Positions 52,765 to 63,189 of a stretch of 64,000 nucleotides of DNA are shown piece after piece (within the stretch, counting starts at the first letter, position 1; every line of letters begins with the position of its first letter). The translations under genes were made by a program, and so were the position numbers. The notes beneath the pieces are model-generated. The model saw nothing but the letters and a program-made list of their open reading frames with translations, had not been told where the DNA came from and did not search any database. The stretch lies in the sequence record MT446421.1; one strand, given 5' to 3'. This stretch comes from Escherichia virus TH55.

Positions 52765-53256
52765 TTATTTGTATGCGTCAAAAGTTCCGGTGCGGAAAGT
52801 TTCAATAACTCGTTTAGCCCGGTTCGGAGTCTGGACTTTATACCATCTTGAGTCTGCCAGTTCCTTGGCAGCCGCTTCCCATGATTTAGCCTTCAGCAAT
52901 CGCATACCCTTAGGAAAACCCGCAACACCAGCAACACCCATCTGGAATACCATATTAATGAGTGCACAACGACGAACTTCATCAAGTACATCATAAACAG
53001 GTTTTAAGACAGGATGTCTCAAGATTCCGGCTTTAGCCTTTTCGACCGAACGGTTAAACAGTGTTTCGGCTTCGTGTTGGGTTATACGACCATTACAGAC
53101 GCGACCCATGAGCTTATCGAGCTCGGCGCGAGCAACATCTTTAGATGGGTTCTTAGTTATCAGTTGCCCGATGCCAATGGTCCAATAGCCTTCAGTATCT
53201 TTATACAAATCCAACTTACAACCTTCATCTATGCGTAACATTTCGAATATATTCAT
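52765..53256 (-). CDS. e: lysozyme (endolysin), T4 e-type
   Basis: 163 aa; near-colinear with recalled T4 lysozyme ([12 protein letters not shown]...catalytic E11/D20/T26). Confidence 0.95.
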
Positions 53257-53258
53257 AA

Positions 53259-53278
53259 TACCCCCTTATATAGGGGTA
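53259..53278 (-). promoter_or_regulatory. RBS-sequestering hairpin at lysozyme start
   Basis: Inverted repeat UACCCC/GGGGUA with 8-nt loop; SD AAGGGGG in 3' arm; AATAAATA overlaps 5' arm. Confidence 0.5.
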
Positions 53279-53282
53279 TTTA

Positions 53283-53741
53283 TTATCCGAAAATTTGAGT
53301 CATTACCTTGTACATCGATTTGCCCATCACATACTGCCATTGACTCGGTTTAATCAGAGCAAATGCATCGAACTCTGGAACCGAACTACCATCCGGGAAG
53401 GTATGATAGGCAGAGCATTTACTATGTCTAAACTGCTCATGCTCAACCGGAACCGTGTACAAAAACAGGTGAAGATTTTTGTTATCTGAATAACGGAACT
53501 CACCCAGGTCCTTTAAGAATGCCGGGTCGTATTGGGTAAACCCGGTTTCTTCTTCGGTTTCACGGATAGCCGCTTCAATCGGGGATTCACCAGCTTCAAC
53601 ATGGCCCTTAGGGATGTCCCATTTATGTGCAGGCATACCTGGTTTACGAGAACAAGTCACACGACCCATGAATAACTCTTTATCTTCAGTCATGAAAATA
53701 ATGCCAGCAGATAATTCTTTCACCTTGTTTTTCTTACTCAT
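53283..53741 (-). CDS. nudE: Nudix hydrolase NudE
   Basis: Trimmed to internal ATG; Nudix box GHVEAGESPIEAAIRETEEETG. Confidence 0.8.
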   Translation of the reverse strand: MSKKNKVKELSAGIIFMTEDKELFMGRVTCSRKPGMPAHKWDIPKGHVEAGESPIEAAIRETEEETGFTQYDPAFLKDLGEFRYSDNKNLHLFLYTVPVEHEQFRHSKCSAYHTFPDGSSVPEFDAFALIKPSQWQYVMGKSMYKVMTQIFG

Positions 53742-53970
53742 CGTCACGTTTCCATGATTGGTTAAAAATATCACTCATTAAAAATTCAAGTCTATTTTCC
53801 AATGAAGGGCTTTCACTACTAGAAACTTGAACCATGTAGTCGGAAATAGGTCGGAACATATCCAAGTCAGTTTCTAAATCATCTTTGATTTTCTCTTCTG
53901 ATGTACCTGTATCATAGGAATACAGATAAGAATCACATGACTCTGATTTAATATAAATTGCAATACTCAT
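53734..53970 (-). CDS. hypothetical acidic protein
   Basis: 78-aa ORF. Confidence 0.45.
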   Translation of the reverse strand: MSIAIYIKSESCDSYLYSYDTGTSEEKIKDDLETDLDMFRPISDYMVQVSSSESPSLENRLEFLMSDIFNQSWKRDDE

Positions 53971-54554
53971 TTACGGCATTCCTCAATAAAGGAGTTCAAT
54001 GTATTTTTCTTAGTGATATCGTCATATACCTTTTTAACTTTAGAAATACGAAAAGGTACTTCAATAACCATAGTCCATAAAAATGATGCAATAAGTCCAG
54101 CAAGAGCAGTAGAAAAGCACGCACCCATTACAGCTACGGGTGCTTCATTTTTGCCTGTCAAGAAAAACCACAGGAATGGTAAAAATAAGATTCCAGCCCA
54201 GGCATAAAACCTGGAACAAATTAACTTATCAAATTCATCACTCCAGGTACGAAATCCATATTTCTTGCTATAAGAAATTAATGGGTCGGGTGTCTGTTCT
54301 TTGAGTGGTTCTGGTTGATACCCATTAATGATATATCCCATTTTATATTCCTTAATTAAAAGCTCTTTCACATGACGATTGCATCGCGACCAATCAACAT
54401 TTTCCACCTTGATTCCTTCATCACCATCATCAAGGTTCGCCCAATATTTTTTGGTAATCATAAATTCATCTCTTGATACAATTATACCTGCATTTTCCGA
54501 CCGACGGATGAAGTTTACATCAACACCCATACAACCCGGCTCATAAAGGGCCAT
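53967..54554 (-). CDS. membrane protein, FI-x-EC-K/R tail family
   Basis: 195 aa; TM helices; C-terminus ...NSFIEECRK. Confidence 0.5.
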   Translation of the reverse strand: MALYEPGCMGVDVNFIRRSENAGIIVSRDEFMITKKYWANLDDGDEGIKVENVDWSRCNRHVKELLIKEYKMGYIINGYQPEPLKEQTPDPLISYSKKYGFRTWSDEFDKLICSRFYAWAGILFLPFLWFFLTGKNEAPVAVMGACFSTALAGLIASFLWTMVIEVPFRISKVKKVYDDITKKNTLNSFIEECRK

Positions 54555-55240
54555 TACCAGCCCTCCATAGGGAATTCCAGATATACTTGAGCATTAACGC
54601 GGATTTCATTTGTAATCTTTTTAACACGGTCGGTATTACGAGACACACGACCAAACCAGCGCCAACCGTTACTTACTGCGCGAGAACCTGTATGCCATGT
54701 CTGCCAATCAAACTGGAGCAACGTGCGGTCAGGAGCATCCCACTTGGCTAATTCATTGGACTCAATTTTTTCCAGAACTTCTTTATGCCACTGACGATAG
54801 ATAAGTTCGCCTTCAGGAATCTGACTAAATTGTGCAGTTCCGGTTGCAAAATAAGTAGGACACACATCAGCGTTAACAAGACCAAGAATATGTTCAGAAT
54901 GGTAACGAGGATTATCATAATCAGGTTGCCCTGCAGTAATAAAGTGTTGACCAACCGGAATATCCGGGCGTGGTACATCGTCATGGTGATAACCTGGGAT
55001 AGCAGGATACCAACCAGGCATCAGCATATGAACCCGAGAATCAAATACAACCTGGTCGGTGTTCCAATCATCCGGCAGACTCATAATAAAGCTACGAGTA
55101 ATAGGACCGCCATTGTCAAAAGCGAAAGCCAATGAGCTGTTGAAGAACATAGTTTCGTTTTTGATTTTATCATTAGAAATTTTACCAGCGAAACTGCCTA
55201 CTGCATGAGCTTGAGAATTAAAAGTTTTTGGACCGTTCAT
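54554..55240 (-). CDS. hypothetical protein
   Basis: 228-aa ORF; GAGGA SD; His/Asp-rich, no confident family call. Confidence 0.5.
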   Translation of the reverse strand: MNGPKTFNSQAHAVGSFAGKISNDKIKNETMFFNSSLAFAFDNGGPITRSFIMSLPDDWNTDQVVFDSRVHMLMPGWYPAIPGYHHDDVPRPDIPVGQHFITAGQPDYDNPRYHSEHILGLVNADVCPTYFATGTAQFSQIPEGELIYRQWHKEVLEKIESNELAKWDAPDRTLLQFDWQTWHTGSRAVSNGWRWFGRVSRNTDRVKKITNEIRVNAQVYLEFPMEGW

Positions 55241-55267
55241 AATATTTTCCTCATTGATTGTGGGACC

Positions 55268-55296
55268 ATTGTGTCATAGTCCCACTTGGATGTACA
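55268..55296 (-). promoter_or_regulatory. early-type promoter (weak -10)
   Basis: -35 TGTACA 55291-55296, 17 bp, -10 CACAAT 55268-55273. Confidence 0.35.
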
Positions 55297-55299
55297 CAC

Positions 55300-56280
55300 T
55301 TATTTTTCGAAAGGACGAATTAAATGTTGGTTAGCCTTGAAACGTTTAACATAGTCTTCGTGACCCAGGGTGTTGTACATATTAACCACTTCCTGGTAAT
55401 GTTCCCAGGCATACTCGCGGAACCATCCAGAAGTAATGGAGGTGCAGACTTTTTCCAGCGCAATATGGAAGCTCACGGATGGAGAGATATTGAACTCATT
55501 GGGAACCTGCGAACGCTCCAGAGCGAGTACACATGCTTCTTCATAAACCCCTGCCAGTTTAATAATCTCAGGGAGTGCTTCAAATTTTTCACGCGAGGTC
55601 ATAACTTCTGAATCATCTTTCATATAGAACTTATATGCAGGCTTATCAGCAAGCGCCACGGCCTCGTGGATGGAGTCATGGTCAAGGGTATAGATTGTAT
55701 CATTAAAGAAAGTTTTCTTGCCCACGTCTAGTTTAGGGTGACTATATGACAATGTTTCTGCCTGGCGCTGCAGCATGATTTTATGCAGTTCGTCATTAAG
55801 AACAACCCCCTTATTGCGAAGGTAATTAATATGACTCATGGTCTTCAGGAAGAATGGATTGTTCTTCAGGTAACGATGAGACAATTTAATTGCCAGACAA
55901 ATATCAGGAGTCGCCCAGTAAAAACCAGATAGACGGTCTTTCTGAATATTTGCCTTCGCATATTTGAGTAAACGATAACTGGAGGTAAAATCTTCCTCTT
56001 GTAGCTCATCAGTCAGCTCACGAACACTTGTCAATGCGCGGACGATGTACGCTTCAAAATAGGTTTCTTTACCATTGTGCATACATTTAAAAGCTTGAAC
56101 ATCTGGGTTATCCACATGCACATGTTGTCCCATCATCTGGGTTTTAAAGCTATTCCAGGAGCCCTGGTCAGCGATAAAGTCCCAATCAGAGTTTTCAATT
56201 TTCTGACTTTCAATCAGACCAGCGTTATGTAATGCACGAGAACCAATAACTAACATCATAATATTTTCCTCAAATAACAC
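55300..56280 (-). CDS. hypothetical protein
   Basis: 326-aa ORF. Confidence 0.55.
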   Translation of the reverse strand: MLFEENIMMLVIGSRALHNAGLIESQKIENSDWDFIADQGSWNSFKTQMMGQHVHVDNPDVQAFKCMHNGKETYFEAYIVRALTSVRELTDELQEEDFTSSYRLLKYAKANIQKDRLSGFYWATPDICLAIKLSHRYLKNNPFFLKTMSHINYLRNKGVVLNDELHKIMLQRQAETLSYSHPKLDVGKKTFFNDTIYTLDHDSIHEAVALADKPAYKFYMKDDSEVMTSREKFEALPEIIKLAGVYEEACVLALERSQVPNEFNISPSVSFHIALEKVCTSITSGWFREYAWEHYQEVVNMYNTLGHEDYVKRFKANQHLIRPFEK

Positions 56281-56511
56281 TTAAATTTCAGCAGCAGAGA
56301 TATTAGATTCATCTATCATCTCAGAGGCGGACCCCTTAACGATAGGAACCAATTTGCCATAGAGGTCTTCATTATAAGGGTCGTTGATACAGTGTGCATC
56401 TTCAAAACGAACACCGTAATCAGACTTCTTATAAACGAGACCGTAAATCTTTGTAAACTTAGCACGACTAATTTTTACAGGCTCATCAGTCATTGGGGCG
56501 TAATACCACAT
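56281..56511 (-). CDS. hypothetical protein
   Basis: 76-aa ORF with own promoter motif. Confidence 0.45.
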   Translation of the reverse strand: MWYYAPMTDEPVKISRAKFTKIYGLVYKKSDYGVRFEDAHCINDPYNEDLYGKLVPIVKGSASEMIDESNISAAEI

Positions 56512-56539
56512 AATGTTTTCCTCATTAGTTGACGAAATA

Positions 56540-56568
56540 ATGATACTACATTTCTTTAGGCTTGTACA
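56540..56568 (-). promoter_or_regulatory. early-type promoter
   Basis: -35 TGTACA 56563-56568, 17 bp, -10 TATCAT 56540-56545. Confidence 0.55.
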
Positions 56569-56614
56569 CTAAATTTCTGCACATAAGTCCTCCTATCACA
56601 TCCTTGTGATTAAA

Positions 56615-56842
56615 TTATTTTCCTAACGAAATACGAGTAGGTTTTTTACCGAAATATTCTTCATAGGAACCATCTAAACGACCTGCTTTAGACCGACAGT
56701 ATGAATCATACTTTTTGTAATAAGTCAACTCTGTATTGTAACGTGGATGTCTATCAGCCATAATAATACTTAACGGCCAGCCTTTAGCATAATCGATAAG
56801 ACCATTTATTTTACGAATATATCTTTTCTTTAATTTTAGCAT
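56615..56842 (-). CDS. hypothetical basic protein
   Basis: 75-aa ORF. Confidence 0.45.
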   Translation of the reverse strand: MLKLKKRYIRKINGLIDYAKGWPLSIIMADRHPRYNTELTYYKKYDSYCRSKAGRLDGSYEEYFGKKPTRISLGK

Positions 56843-57069
56843 GAGCTTGGGTACCAGATTTTACCATCGGCACGAGCAACGAAGGTGCGACCAGCTTCTT
56901 CACCATAACAAGAGCTGTTCAACCAGTCTTCAAGACGGACTTCGCCGTCATAATCATCAAGCTCGACACCGAAATCTTGAGCAGAAGCCATATCTTTTAC
57001 TTTCTTATACAGCGCGGCCAGTTCAAGGGCAGCTTTTTCTAATTCAGCATGTTCAACAGCAGTAGTCAT
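56836..57069 (-). CDS. small acidic protein, WxSSxC-tail paralog 1
   Basis: 77 aa; AAGGTGA SD; C-terminus ...GKIWYPSSC. Confidence 0.55.
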   Translation of the reverse strand: MTTAVEHAELEKAALELAALYKKVKDMASAQDFGVELDDYDGEVRLEDWLNSSCYGEEAGRTFVARADGKIWYPSSC

Positions 57070-57078
57070 TTTATCACC

Positions 57079-57309
57079 TTAGCAAGTCATAGAGGAGTTA
57101 AACCAGAAACCCTGGCCATCATTGATGCCGTAATCACTGCGAATCCAGTCATATTCTTCATATTCTTCGCTAGAAGCCGGAATATAACGTTGGAAACGGT
57201 CTGCGGCGTGTAAATTAAAAATTTCACCGGTTTTATCGGCTAACTGCTCACCTTCACAGATTAGTGCACGGATTTGGTCTTCAATTTCTTTAACAGTTTT
57301 AGTAGTCAT
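57079..57309 (-). CDS. small acidic protein, WxSSxC-tail paralog 2
   Basis: 76 aa; AAGGT SD; C-terminus ...GFWFNSSMTC. Confidence 0.55.
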   Translation of the reverse strand: MTTKTVKEIEDQIRALICEGEQLADKTGEIFNLHAADRFQRYIPASSEEYEEYDWIRSDYGINDGQGFWFNSSMTC

Positions 57310-57318
57310 TTTATAACC

Positions 57319-57516
57319 TTAGCATTCATAAGAGGAGGACACCCAAGAGGTACCGCTAATAGTAATACAACCATTATAAAGCGTAATATGTTGTTCCAGA
57401 TTACGCTGACCGTCAATATAGATATCAGCTTCTTCGCGTTCTTCTTTGCAAATCTGGATAACGTTTTCAATAGCTGCCGCGGCAGTACGGATTGCACAAT
57501 CTAATTCACGAGACAT
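57319..57516 (-). CDS. small acidic protein, WxSSxC-tail paralog 3
   Basis: Trimmed to ATG 57514-57516 (AAGGAA SD); C-terminus ...GTSWVSSSYEC. Confidence 0.55.
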   Translation of the reverse strand: MSRELDCAIRTAAAAIENVIQICKEEREEADIYIDGQRNLEQHITLYNGCITISGTSWVSSSYEC

Positions 57517-57524
57517 ATAATTCC

Positions 57525-57806
57525 TTAACATTCAGAAGAGGAGGACACCCAACCGCCATTTTCTAGGTCGGTTGTGTAGTCATGAGTATTAACAATAGCC
57601 CATTCAGGATGACCATCTTCTTCCCAATGAGCAAGGTCAGCTTTCAAGGCGCCAGGAGAATAATAGTCACCGCCCATACCGCGAGCAGGGTATATATTAA
57701 AATGAGTCTCATATTTGTCTGCAATTTCCTCAGCACGGCGAATGGCTTCATGGATTTCTTTTACTGCGGCCAGAAGCTCTGGTTGGTTATGGTTATCATT
57801 CATCAT
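57525..57806 (-). CDS. small acidic protein, WxSSxC-tail paralog 4
   Basis: Trimmed to MMNDNHN start abutting upstream stop; C-terminus ...GGWVSSSSEC. Confidence 0.55.
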   Translation of the reverse strand: MMNDNHNQPELLAAVKEIHEAIRRAEEIADKYETHFNIYPARGMGGDYYSPGALKADLAHWEEDGHPEWAIVNTHDYTTDLENGGWVSSSSEC

Positions 57807-57807
57807 A

Positions 57808-58098
57808 TTAGCACATCTCAGAAGAGGAAACCCAGGCACCAACAGTAACAACGCCGTTTTCAACTCGCCCGCCGTTGTTTTCAATATGGTGAGCGAACCA
57901 TTCGGAACATTCATAACCAACTGGATGATATGTACGGCCGGTGCCGTAATCACCAGTGCTGAATTCGATACCATATTCATCTGCGATTTCTTCACAGTGT
58001 TTTTCAATTTCAGAGGTCTTATTTAGAAGAGAATAGATGGCTTTTTCTGCAGATTTCTCATCATAATACTTGGGGATAGCAATTTCAATTTTATTCAT
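57808..58098 (-). CDS. small acidic protein, WxSSxC-tail paralog 5
   Basis: 96 aa; AAGGAA SD; C-terminus ...GAWVSSSEMC. Confidence 0.55.
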   Translation of the reverse strand: MNKIEIAIPKYYDEKSAEKAIYSLLNKTSEIEKHCEEIADEYGIEFSTGDYGTGRTYHPVGYECSEWFAHHIENNGGRVENGVVTVGAWVSSSEMC

Positions 58099-58448
58099 GA
58101 TTTACATTCCTTAATAAAGGTTTCAAGGTCATTACGTTTTGTTTTGTCTAGGAACTTATTATACTCAGCCATTGCCAAAGCGTATCTCTTTCGGCTGGGA
58201 GCATTCACGGCATTTGTGTGACAGATATCATACACAACCGGGATAAAATAAGCCACAACAGCCGGAGCAATTATCATAAAGAAGCCCATCTCAATAGGCA
58301 TGACTCCCTCGATTGCAGCCATAACCGTGGTCATTACCAGACCAACCAAACCACCAAGCATGGCAGTGACAATCCCCAATAATAAATTGCCGCCAATATC
58401 ATATTCAGCCAATTGATAAACATGTGATGCAAGACTAGGCCGTTCCAT
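58095..58448 (-). CDS. membrane protein, FI-x-EC-K/R tail family
   Basis: Trimmed to ATG 58446-58448 (AAGGAGG SD); TM helices; C-terminus ...LETFIKECKS. Confidence 0.5.
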   Translation of the reverse strand: MERPSLASHVYQLAEYDIGGNLLLGIVTAMLGGLVGLVMTTVMAAIEGVMPIEMGFFMIIAPAVVAYFIPVVYDICHTNAVNAPSRKRYALAMAEYNKFLDKTKRNDLETFIKECKS

Positions 58449-58794
58449 TACGAACCTCCTTAATAAATTCTTCGGCACATTTAATTTTGTGCTCTTCTTG
58501 TAGGGAAACACATTTTTGTTCCCACTCTTTAACTCGTCCACGGTATCCTTTATTCATATGATTTTGATGCCACACATTTATCAAAATCATACTCAGGACT
58601 GTAATAAAAGGAGCTGCGATTATTAGCGCCCAGGCAACTCCAACACTAATGATACTCATATCCCCACAAAGCACCATCATTATAACCCCAACGATGCATA
58701 TGGACAGGGCCCCAAATGCTGGCATAAGGTCTTTATCAATTTTGTCTGCGTATACAAATTTTTCTGGTTTACTTGGCAGATATAACGTTCGCAT
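58435..58794 (-). CDS. membrane protein, FI-x-E tail family
   Basis: Trimmed to ATG 58792-58794 (AAGGGG SD); TM helices; C-terminus ...AEEFIKEVRNGTA. Confidence 0.5.
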   Translation of the reverse strand: MRTLYLPSKPEKFVYADKIDKDLMPAFGALSICIVGVIMMVLCGDMSIISVGVAWALIIAAPFITVLSMILINVWHQNHMNKGYRGRVKEWEQKCVSLQEEHKIKCAEEFIKEVRNGTA

Positions 58795-59341
58795 TTTGAA
58801 CCCCTTTAGCATATTCACGACATTCAGCAATAAAACGATTAAGCTTACGTTTCCGTTTACGACCCTCTAATGTATACTCAGCCGCCAAATCAAGAAGCTC
58901 ATCTTTATCATAATTTTTAATATCAGTATAAGTTGGGCGGCGGTCAACCATTCCAAAGTGGTCACCATTTTCCAACATCAAATAACACACCAAATGGTCA
59001 TCATCGTCCGCATTAATAAGCTGCTTATAATCACTTGGTTCATTTAACGCATACACAGAATAACTCAGCCCAGCGAATTCCACTCGTTGAATACCCAGAT
59101 TTACGTCAATAATTTCCAAGGCATCTGCAAAAGAAAGGTCTTCAGCTAAAGCAAAAATAAAAGGCAATTTGGTAGTATCGCCGCGACTTGTTGTTCTTCT
59201 TAAGAAATCATTGGAATAGCCCAAGTCGCGGCGGATTCTATAAAGAACTGTGTTAGTTTCAGTGGCAAGACCACTACCGCCAAACCATTCCACATTTGAT
59301 AAAAGATTATCATATAAAGTCATAATTTTCTCCTCTCCCAA
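58769..59341 (-). CDS. hypothetical protein with FI-x-EC-R motif
   Basis: 190 aa; C-terminal KRKRKLNRFIAECREYAKG. Confidence 0.5.
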   Translation of the reverse strand: MGEEKIMTLYDNLLSNVEWFGGSGLATETNTVLYRIRRDLGYSNDFLRRTTSRGDTTKLPFIFALAEDLSFADALEIIDVNLGIQRVEFAGLSYSVYALNEPSDYKQLINADDDDHLVCYLMLENGDHFGMVDRRPTYTDIKNYDKDELLDLAAEYTLEGRKRKRKLNRFIAECREYAKGVQNANVISAK

Positions 59342-59365
59342 TTAGGGGGCTTTGCCCCCTTTATC

Positions 59366-59959
59366 TTACTTAAGTGAATTGATGTATTCTTCAATGTCAG
59401 CGGACGTGGTATCCACACCAACCTGTGGACCTTTGAAGGTTTCAACACGCATCAAGGTGTCTTCAATATCAATCTTAGTCAATGCAGCGATTTCAACAAC
59501 ATCATCTGCAGTCGCAATACCCAGGGCAGATACCTTACGGGTTTCGCGGATGTATTCCAGTTTAACAGCTAGTTCCTGACGAGAATCATCCAGCTCTTTA
59601 ACTTTCAATTTAATTTCATTACGCATTTCAACATAATCGTCTGCCTTCTTACGAAGTTGTTTAGCAGTGCGACGATACAGGAGACCCAGTTTAGCATGGA
59701 CCTGGACATCAGCACCATCAGCAATCAGTTTGCGGATTTCACGCTCTTTTGAGGCGGCGAGTTGGTCTTTTTCATTCGCTAACTCGCGGATGCGTTTTTC
59801 TTCATTAACAGACTTAACGTGGGCGGTCTGGAGCTCAGTAATCTTGTCAATCAGGGTAGACGCCGCTTGAGTATATTGGTCTTCAATAGACAGGTTTTTT
59901 GCCATTGCAGTACCCAGTTTGGAGCGGATGAATTCAACAAGTTTCTTTAAAGTATTCAT
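59366..59959 (-). CDS. coiled-coil protein
   Basis: 197 aa; extended heptad-like helical sequence. Confidence 0.5.
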
Positions 59960-60031
59960 GGTATTTCCTTCAGTTGGTTAATGTTTTATTATCCAGGGAA
60001 CATACTATCATGTTCCCATTAAAGCACTAAT

Positions 60032-63036: not shown

Positions 63037-63113
63037 TGGTCGGGGTGGTGGGATTCTAACCCACAACCTACGGTTTAGAAGACCGTTGCTCTATACAATT
63101 GAGCTACACCCCG
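63037..63113 (-). tRNA. tRNA-Arg (anticodon UCU)
   Basis: Hand-folded cloverleaf: acceptor CGGGGTG/CACCCCG, anticodon stem ACGGT/ACCGT, loop CTTCTAA, T-arm GTGGG/CCCAC, encoded CCA. Confidence 0.75.
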
Positions 63114-63189
63114 GGTGGCCCCATCCGGACTTGAACCGGAAACCTGCCAGTTATGAGCCGGATGCTCTAACCAATTGAGCTACAGGGCC
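63114..63189 (-). tRNA. tRNA with CAU anticodon (Met or lysidine-type Ile)
   Basis: Hand-folded: acceptor GGCCCTG/TGGGGCC, D-arm GCTC/GAGC, loop CTCATAA, T-arm TCCGG/CCGGA; abuts tRNA-Arg. Confidence 0.7.

Follow-up and report, generated by a model that had tools for sequence, protein, structure and literature searches.

We analysed a stretch of 64,000 nucleotides (nt) from Escherichia virus TH55 (sequence record MT446421.1; hereafter the window), in which five consecutive minus-strand genes at positions 56836–58098 encode small acidic proteins of 65–96 amino acid (aa) residues that end in nearly the same tail. This arrangement had been described in an original prediction made from the sequence alone, and the open reading frames (ORFs) and the sequence bear it out. 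The five genes, here called W1 to W5, are old paralogs, each conserved in its own right, and belong to a widespread, phage-only family. The members of this family encode small acidic proteins that invariably terminate in W-x-S-S-S-x-x-C and are arranged in tandem in variable copy number. This family and a co-oriented gene at 55300–56259 form a two-component module, the parts of which are almost obligately linked. Structural modelling predicts that the product of the partner gene is a nucleotidyltransferase that folds like MenT and has all three residues of the catalytic triad.

Both families were already known as bins of unknown function (PHROGs 899, 4882, and 2141; Pfam DUF7277 and DUF7275). 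What is new is the linkage of the tail family with the enzyme gene; nucleotidyltransferases with small partners encoded upstream are a known kind of system. Nothing on the pairing, the family, or its tail motif was found in the full-text literature, the coverage of which was incomplete, so that this absence is no proof. Among the hundreds of small early genes without known function in large virulent phages, one family gains a handle through the tag and its enzyme partner. The module is common, occurring also in phages considered for therapy (Escherichia, Klebsiella, Acinetobacter, Pseudomonas, and Aeromonas), and the nearest structural relatives of its enzyme are tRNA-modifying toxins of bacterial immunity.

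The small proteins and their common tail

The proteins W1–W5 have isoelectric points (pI) of 4.37–4.75 and net charges of -6 to -12, and their tails follow the pattern W-x-(S/N/P)-S-S-x-x-C, the hallmark of the family as a whole being W-x-S-S-S-x-x-C at the protein end. They can be aligned end to end, and besides the tail, all have an N-terminal helix, a Y-x-P(G) segment, and an internal Trp. Their bodies had been called divergent, which holds for the identity to W1 of only 20–27%, but they are not unrelated; the full-length alignment with its common features indicates that W1–W5 are true paralogs over their entire length, with more than a tail in common. Consistently, W1, W2, W4, and W5 matched the profile of phrog_899 end to end (E-values of 8e-23 to 9e-10), and W3 matched phrog_4882. 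When the ORFs of the window were searched with a hidden Markov model (HMM) of the family, only the five array ORFs were matched (E-values of 5e-28 to 7e-9; next best, 1.8), and a regular expression for the tail found the same five plus one chance ORF of 31 aa. The shared tail is thus not due to chance. W5 carries a second copy of the motif, DWLNSSC, about 25 residues ahead of its terminal IWYPSSC.

The family extends far beyond this genome. An exhaustive profile search over 1.84 billion representative proteins (clusters at 50% identity, E-values up to 1e-3) yielded 138 clusters with lengths of 70–136 aa. The protein ended exactly at the Cys in 125 of the 138 clusters, and most of the others were one residue longer. 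Counted back from the last Cys, W at -7 was present in 131/135, S at -4 in 133/135, S or T at -3 in 133/135, and S, A, or P at -5 in 127/135; most members had a G at -9 or -8, and positions -2 and -1 were free. The mean column identity of the bodies was only about 14%, with a retained consensus of ...EAE..ADE.G..F....YGMGGTY.P...W...G.W.SSS..C. The median pI and charge were 4.5 and -8.4, respectively, and the terminal Cys was the sole Cys in 74 of the 138 members. Many members repeat the tail motif internally: metagenomic proteins such as P0056, P0080, P0152, and P0169 carry two or three W-E-S-S-x-E units followed by the terminal W-V-S-S-S-x-x-C, and P0056 reads WESSSEGWESSSEGWVSSSSQC. One lineage on contigs of about 168 kb (L069, L072, L075, and L089) has six or seven family members, one of them downstream of the enzyme gene, and its tails are relaxed (WMASASSC, WQGSSC, WYSSHC, and WQPSAGIC), so that neither the Trp-to-Cys spacing nor the Ser pair is absolutely fixed.

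The small proteins had no match in Pfam, NCBIfam, or PADLOC, no relative in the PDB by profile search, no fold match, and no hit among the models and folds of defence and anti-defence systems. Their sole matches were phrog_899 and phrog_4882, both of unknown function, and profile searches accordingly placed them in no characterised family. They also had no counterpart in any T4 ORF, in agreement with the earlier view that the layout lies outside the characterised T4 gene families, and a six-frame HMM scan of the whole T4 genome detected neither the small family nor the enzyme. The AlphaFold2 (AF2) model of W1, with a predicted local distance difference test score (pLDDT) of 82.8, showed a long helix at residues 14–42 along with a short helix and a small sheet. 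Confidence was lowest in the tail, with a pLDDT of about 71 compared with about 90–94 in the three blocks before it, which would fit an exposed arm.

Orthologues of every paralog exist in related phages, with identities of 45–100%. W4 was the most variable among them (45–80%), those of W1 were 45–96% identical, and W5 was 96–100% conserved in Dhaka/Gapriver-type phages. The gene-wide ratios of nonsynonymous to synonymous substitution rates (dN/dS) of W1, W2, W3, and W5 were 0.22, 0.30, 0.20, and 0.16, respectively; the range of 0.16–0.30 for the small genes compares with 0.06 for the neighbouring enzyme gene. These values indicate purifying selection, and no positive selection was seen gene-wide. 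The family had been proposed to be diversifying, a description that the dN/dS values and the stable orthologues of each paralog contradict. W2 was 99% identical to its counterparts in two JS98-type phages, in which W1 and W4 were 77–78% and 56% identical, respectively, and W3 and W5 were at least 91% identical in all Dhaka/Gapriver-type relatives carrying them. This mosaic identity suggests recombination inside the array, gene by gene.

Linkage to a putative nucleotidyltransferase gene

In the first five contexts examined, those of UPEC07, HX01, Aeromonas 44RR2.8t, Pseudomonas PsgM04F, and Citrobacter Tr1, a gene for a protein of about 300–326 aa with DUF7277 and DUF7275 (phrog_2141) lay directly downstream of the small gene or genes. 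With the enzyme as bait, 80 IMG/VR loci with 38–97% identity to it were collected, representing 23 lineages (clusters at 60% identity). Small-family genes were present at 73 of the 80 loci by the family HMM and at 78 when the tail regular expression was added. All 243 tail-bearing ORFs of these loci lay on the enzyme strand, and none lay on the opposite one. There were 1–7 small genes per enzyme locus, with modes of 2 and 5, and a median of 308 nt separated the enzyme start from the nearest end of the small genes, that of the last one. Small genes were found upstream of the enzyme gene in 21 of the 23 lineages; as for the two lineages without an upstream call, one locus was cut upstream, and the other showed a probable start-call artefact. 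Downstream positions were limited to the small genes of Stenotrophomonas YB07 and to one copy in each of four loci.

The reverse test gave the same picture. A degenerate DNA pattern for W-[VIM]-S-S-S-x-x-C-stop retrieved 58 loci, half of which (29) contained true family members, and the enzyme gene was present in 19 of the 19 such loci with enough downstream DNA and in none of the 29 chance-match loci. The pairing was kept amid differing surroundings in Tevenvirinae, Biquartavirus, Twarogvirinae, Stephanstirmvirinae, Otagovirus, Menderavirus, and contigs of 355–389 kb, and it was also seen in Otagovirus psageK4 (about 5–7 copies), Acinetobacter Acj61, and YB07. Clustering of all co-oriented ORFs left only the enzyme and the small family in at least four lineages, with no third module gene, and promoter-like sites were no more frequent than expected by chance. 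The original prediction had missed the enzyme gene. Its suggestion of a common C-terminal tag turned out to be the best description of the tail, and the almost obligate linkage of the family to this one conserved gene lends it further weight.

The enzyme gene was found in 697 of about 50,700 GenBank phage records and in more than 2,000 protein clusters, none of which gave it a functional name except for evident mis-annotations. Its products are highly conserved, being 44–75% identical among unrelated phage groups. The AF2 model of the enzyme was confident, with a pLDDT of 92.4 and a predicted template modelling score (pTM) of 0.86, and the structural relatives tabulated for it, with their values in brackets, were the MenT1 toxin (10.7), ANT(2'') (8.9), TglT/MenT3 (8.9), MenT4 (8.2), the Helicobacter pylori putative nucleotidyltransferase 4ok0 (7.9), TM1012 (7.8), and LnuA (7.1). 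The signature of the DNA polymerase beta (Pol-beta) superfamily, in which an hG[GS] motif, a DxD pair, and a further acidic residue are placed on a strand–helix–strand core, was recognised, with G6-S7 after the strand 2–5, D25 and D27 starting the strand 26–31, and E69 in the strand 64–73, all on the expected elements. D25, D27, and E69 were invariant in 40 sequences with identities down to 44%, and G6 and S7 were at least 90% conserved. When the whole protein (E-values up to 1) and its separate domains (E-values up to 10) were scanned with Pfam, DUF7277 and DUF7275 and otherwise sub-threshold chance matches only were returned, with no match to DUF1814/AbiEii or another nucleotidyltransferase family, and PADLOC gave no match. 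The DUF7275 domain is rich in invariant His, Asp, Glu, and Cys residues, including H128, H174, H194-D195, H198, C243, and C272; it had no recognisable relative, and nothing was found to support an HD-like identity.

Short distant homologues of the enzyme, of 252–275 aa, retain the N-terminal GSRA...DxD. They include Streptomyces phage Annadreamy gp196, Gordonia phage PhinkBoden gp17, and Curvibacter phage P26059A_0052, and the PhinkBoden gene adjoins a tRNA cluster. At one locus on a T4-like contig (L032, 3615–4567), a seven-gene tRNA cluster occupies the usual array position directly upstream of the enzyme gene, and the 5 kb examined contained no convincing tail-family gene. Proximity to tRNA genes was rejected as a general link, a tRNA gene being within 5 kb in only 7 of 51 diverse loci. 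In several unrelated phages, genes related to nicotinamide adenine dinucleotide (NAD) lay within a few kilobases of the module, encoding NAMPT, phosphoribosyl pyrophosphate (PRPP) synthetase, and Sir2-like and DprA-like proteins (L007, 781–2235; L153, 1–878; L150, 5172–7881; L008, 4139–4717 and 9524–10327). As a link, these NAD-salvage neighbours are weak; NAMPT and the DprA-like protein were each found in only 3 of the 23 lineages of the 80-locus set.

Possible roles of the tail

We tentatively favour, with a probability of roughly 0.35, an explanation in which the small proteins are tagged substrates of the nucleotidyltransferase. Each small protein would engage the catalytic cleft of the enzyme through its tail, in which the hydroxyl of Ser -4 or -3 would receive a nucleotidyl or phosphoryl group from the enzyme. 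With the Trp as the anchor of the tail, the thiol and the carboxylate of the terminal Cys would lie near the catalytic metals, and the diverged acidic bodies would perform different jobs early in infection. We infer that the tail is the enzyme contact because the enzyme and the tail are the most conserved elements of the module, whereas the bodies and the copy number vary. The presence of 1–7 copies per single enzyme gene, together with the lower dN/dS of that gene, fits one enzyme with many clients, and a conserved enzyme beside several diverged clients with a terminal tag bearing hydroxyl and thiol groups resembles enzyme–substrate systems.

Enzymes of the nucleotidyltransferase fold that modify small partner proteins are known from GlnD–PII, MntA–HepT, and CitX–CitD. 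MntA–HepT is a type VII toxin–antitoxin system, and CitX puts a prosthetic group on a Ser of CitD, a small acidic carrier of about 100 aa. The present module is like these in that a Pol-beta-type transferase, here a predicted one, is paired with a small protein, and the acceptor in the known systems is a hydroxyl. It differs from them in that no sequence relationship was detected in the Pfam scan, in that their acceptor lies within the fold and not in a terminal tail, and in that they have no tandem paralogous clients. Phosphorylation of a Ser/Thr of their own active site by MenT-type nucleotidyltransferases is reported in PMC11375011.

Several points weigh against the tagged-substrate explanation. 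All characterised fold relatives (MenT1, MenT3, and MenT4) have the 3' ends of tRNAs rather than proteins as substrates, and the small upstream partners in those systems are inhibitory (PMC10435456). The spacing between Trp and Cys ranges over 4–7 residues, SS is replaced by SA or GS in some lineages, and one residue follows the Cys in about 9% of the clusters; alternatively, the tail could have a structural part in the small fold. With a pI of about 6.1, the enzyme is itself mildly acidic, so that there is no obvious charge complementarity with the small proteins. In addition, no small-family gene was found within 4 kb of the short distant enzyme homologues in the Streptomyces, Gordonia, and Curvibacter phages, from which it follows that the enzyme family is wider than the pairing and has no general need for the small proteins.

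The main rival, drawn by analogy with MenAT1, is that the small proteins are antitoxin-like regulators, i.e., pseudo-substrate inhibitors of the MenT-like enzyme, the tail plugging the active site until the enzyme is needed, with the Trp as a base mimic, the Ser residues offering hydroxyls, and the terminal Cys chelating the catalytic metals. In MenAT1 of M. tuberculosis, the active site of MenT1 is blocked by MenA1, a helical antitoxin of 68 aa encoded upstream (PMC10435456). Regulation of this kind would account for the gene order and the fold, as the enzyme here has a predicted MenT fold and the small genes lie directly upstream of it on the same strand in most loci. However, neither component resembles its MenAT1 counterpart in sequence, the small proteins lack the fold of MenA1, and MenA1 lacks the W-x-S-S-S-x-x-C tail; the enzyme here is not DUF1814/AbiEii by sequence and has a much larger C-terminal domain (DUF7275). 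One toxin would not need two to seven anciently diverged antitoxins, each under purifying selection, whereas 1–7 diverged small genes accompany each enzyme here. Furthermore, the small genes of YB07 are downstream of the enzyme gene, and the module belongs to large virulent phages, unlike the chromosomal MenAT1, and a translation-blocking toxin has no obvious use to a lytic phage. An acid–base pairing of toxin and antitoxin was rejected because the enzyme is not basic. We regard the inhibitor role as doubtful overall; if a toxin with multiple inhibitors proved true, the module would be the first MenT-like one described in lytic phages.

It is unlikely that the small proteins serve instead as specificity adaptors, each acidic body binding a different host or phage target, such as a mimicked nucleic-acid-binding protein, and the tail tethering it to the enzyme, which would modify the target. 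An invariant tail on a variable body, several paralogs per enzyme, a strong negative charge as in nucleic-acid mimics, and the mosaic swapping of individual paralogs among related phages would all suit such adaptors, but the proposal is entirely inferential, two invariant Ser residues and a terminal Cys exceed the needs of a tether, and the small proteins show no fold similarity to known mimic proteins. W1–W5 share with the acidic nucleic-acid mimics Ocr, ArdA, and Arn their strong negative charge but no similarity in sequence or fold. The adjacency to the enzyme gene could also be inherited synteny, with the small proteins acting alone as decoys or anti-defence effectors and the tail binding a host component or capping the small fold. 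The acidity of the proteins, their location in a hypervariable early-gene region of the type typical of host-takeover and anti-defence genes, and the occurrence of the enzyme family without small proteins in distant phages are in line with this. Descent alone is nevertheless hard put to explain the adjacency in 21 of 23 lineages amid unrelated surroundings, the co-orientation of 243 of 243 tail ORFs, the result of the reverse test (19/19), and the absence of both components from T4, and we consider independent action improbable. For the array itself, a decoy or anti-defence role, which had been raised before, is neither supported nor excluded. The T4 internal proteins IPI–III have an N-terminal capsid-targeting sequence of the MKTYQEFIAE type; the array was rejected as a set of such proteins, its N-termini (MNKIEIAIPK, MMNDNHNQPE, MSRELDCAIR, MTTKTVKEIE, and MTTAVEHAEL) lacking such a signal and T4 having no homologue.

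The other idea put forward earlier, that of leader–core peptide precursors, fares worst. Here the body of a precursor of a ribosomally synthesized and post-translationally modified peptide (RiPP) would be a leader or scaffold, and the Trp/Ser/Cys tail would be processed by dehydration, thioether formation, or Trp–Cys crosslinking and then released. As in RiPP clusters with many precursors per maturase, such as those of prochlorosins, tandem small genes with a common recognition element adjoin a single enzyme gene; Ser and Cys are the usual reactive residues, and a terminal Cys three residues past a Ser recalls the cores that form aminovinylcysteine (AviCys). In the present family, however, the conserved element is an 8-residue C-terminal tail and not an N-terminal leader, so that the would-be core is conserved and the would-be leader variable, the reverse of RiPPs. 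Moreover, the proteins (65–100 aa) are predicted to fold, as judged from the pLDDT of 82.8, and no protease or exporter is linked. Pfam detected no known maturase among the flanking genes examined, the only conserved neighbour being the nucleotidyltransferase-fold protein, which is outside the known RiPP classes. We consider RiPP-like processing very improbable.

The window genes are members of phrog_899, phrog_4882, phrog_2141, DUF7277, and DUF7275 by HMM, and these entries record no tail motif, pairing, or role. Beyond the tagged-substrate explanation, a more far-reaching proposal, which we put forward with considerable reserve, is that the module represents an undescribed phage protein-tagging system. 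A MenT-like enzyme would recognise W-x-S-S-S-x-x-C-COOH as a short, genetically encoded C-terminal tag, present on 1–7 changeable small acidic effectors or carriers, and would nucleotidylylate it covalently or assemble on it a group derived from a nucleotide. The system would serve large virulent phages of Gram-negative bacteria in host takeover or counter-defence. Should the tail be a tag for modification or docking, phage biology would gain a new kind of post-translational system and, with it, direct access to the functions of dozens of 'hypothetical' proteins.

Genes and annotation of the window

The genes of the array, the partner gene, and the two ORFs between them are listed in Table 1. 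As had been noted, the array lies between nudE (about 53283–53741) and the two tRNA genes at 63037–63189.

Table 1. Array genes, intervening ORFs, and partner gene in the window
Feature	Position	Strand	Remarks
W1, small acidic tail-family protein	57808–58098	minus	96 aa; end GAWVSSSEMC; phrog_899, E 8e-23; family HMM, E 1e-26
W2, small acidic tail-family protein	57525–57806	minus	93 aa; end GGWVSSSSEC; phrog_899, E 1e-19
W3, small acidic tail-family protein	57319–57516	minus	65 aa; end TSWVSSSYEC; phrog_4882, E 4e-36; phrog_899 weak (0.19)
W4, small acidic tail-family protein	57079–57309	minus	76 aa; end GFWFNSSMTC; phrog_899, E 1e-14; family HMM, E 5e-28
W5, small acidic tail-family protein	56836–57069	minus	77 aa; end KIWYPSSC; phrog_899, E 9e-10; family HMM, E 1e-20
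Basic 75-aa ORF between array and enzyme gene, phrog_7065	56615–56842	minus	outside the conserved module
76-aa ORF between array and enzyme gene, phrog_3723	56281–56511	minus	lineage-specific; outside the conserved module
Partner gene, 319-aa protein with DUF7277 (N-terminal) and DUF7275 (C-terminal), phrog_2141	55300–56259	minus	predicted Pol-beta-type nucleotidyltransferase, MenT-like fold

A Shine-Dalgarno sequence of its own had been ascribed to each array gene. This holds for W3, W4, and W5, in which the sequences are clear (TAAGGA, TAAGGT, and TAAGGTGAT, respectively) and each consists of the previous stop codon plus GG; the start of W3 at 57516 follows its TAAGGA, and its length of 65 aa is matched by orthologues. 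It does not hold equally for W1 and W2, which have weaker sequences. The ATG of W1 overlaps the upstream stop codon (ATGA), and that of W2 is 1 nt past the W1 stop codon; because their starts sit at, or one base after, the preceding stop, these two genes look translationally coupled.

The gene calls were compared with the annotation of GenBank MW250787, Escherichia phage UPEC07 (Straboviridae, Gaprivervirus), which is 100% identical to the window in this region. In that record, W1 is omitted, and W2 is stretched to 151 aa in a frame overlapping W1. The W1 and W2 calls of the original prediction are favoured over those in GenBank because they are supported by orthologues of other phages. Over positions 53000–60000 of the window, the MW250787 annotation is unreliable, and ORFs of 70–200 aa are given implausible structural names ('major capsid protein', 'tail completion protein', 'portal vertex protein', and 'host specificity protein').

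Of the two intervening ORFs, that of phrog_7065 was found in just 4 of 11 related loci, with a dN/dS of 0.035 where present, and looks like a strongly constrained inserted gene. The phrog_3723 ORF is missing from HX01, 44RR2.8t, PsgM04F, and Tr1, in which the array abuts the enzyme gene. On the other side of the array, two overlapping minus-strand genes at 58095–58541 and 58435–58830 encode predicted membrane proteins of phrog_2330 and phrog_2604. The two proteins cross-match weakly (E-value of 0.007) and may be distant paralogs, and their genes lie directly upstream of the array in Tevenvirinae and are not part of the conserved module elsewhere.

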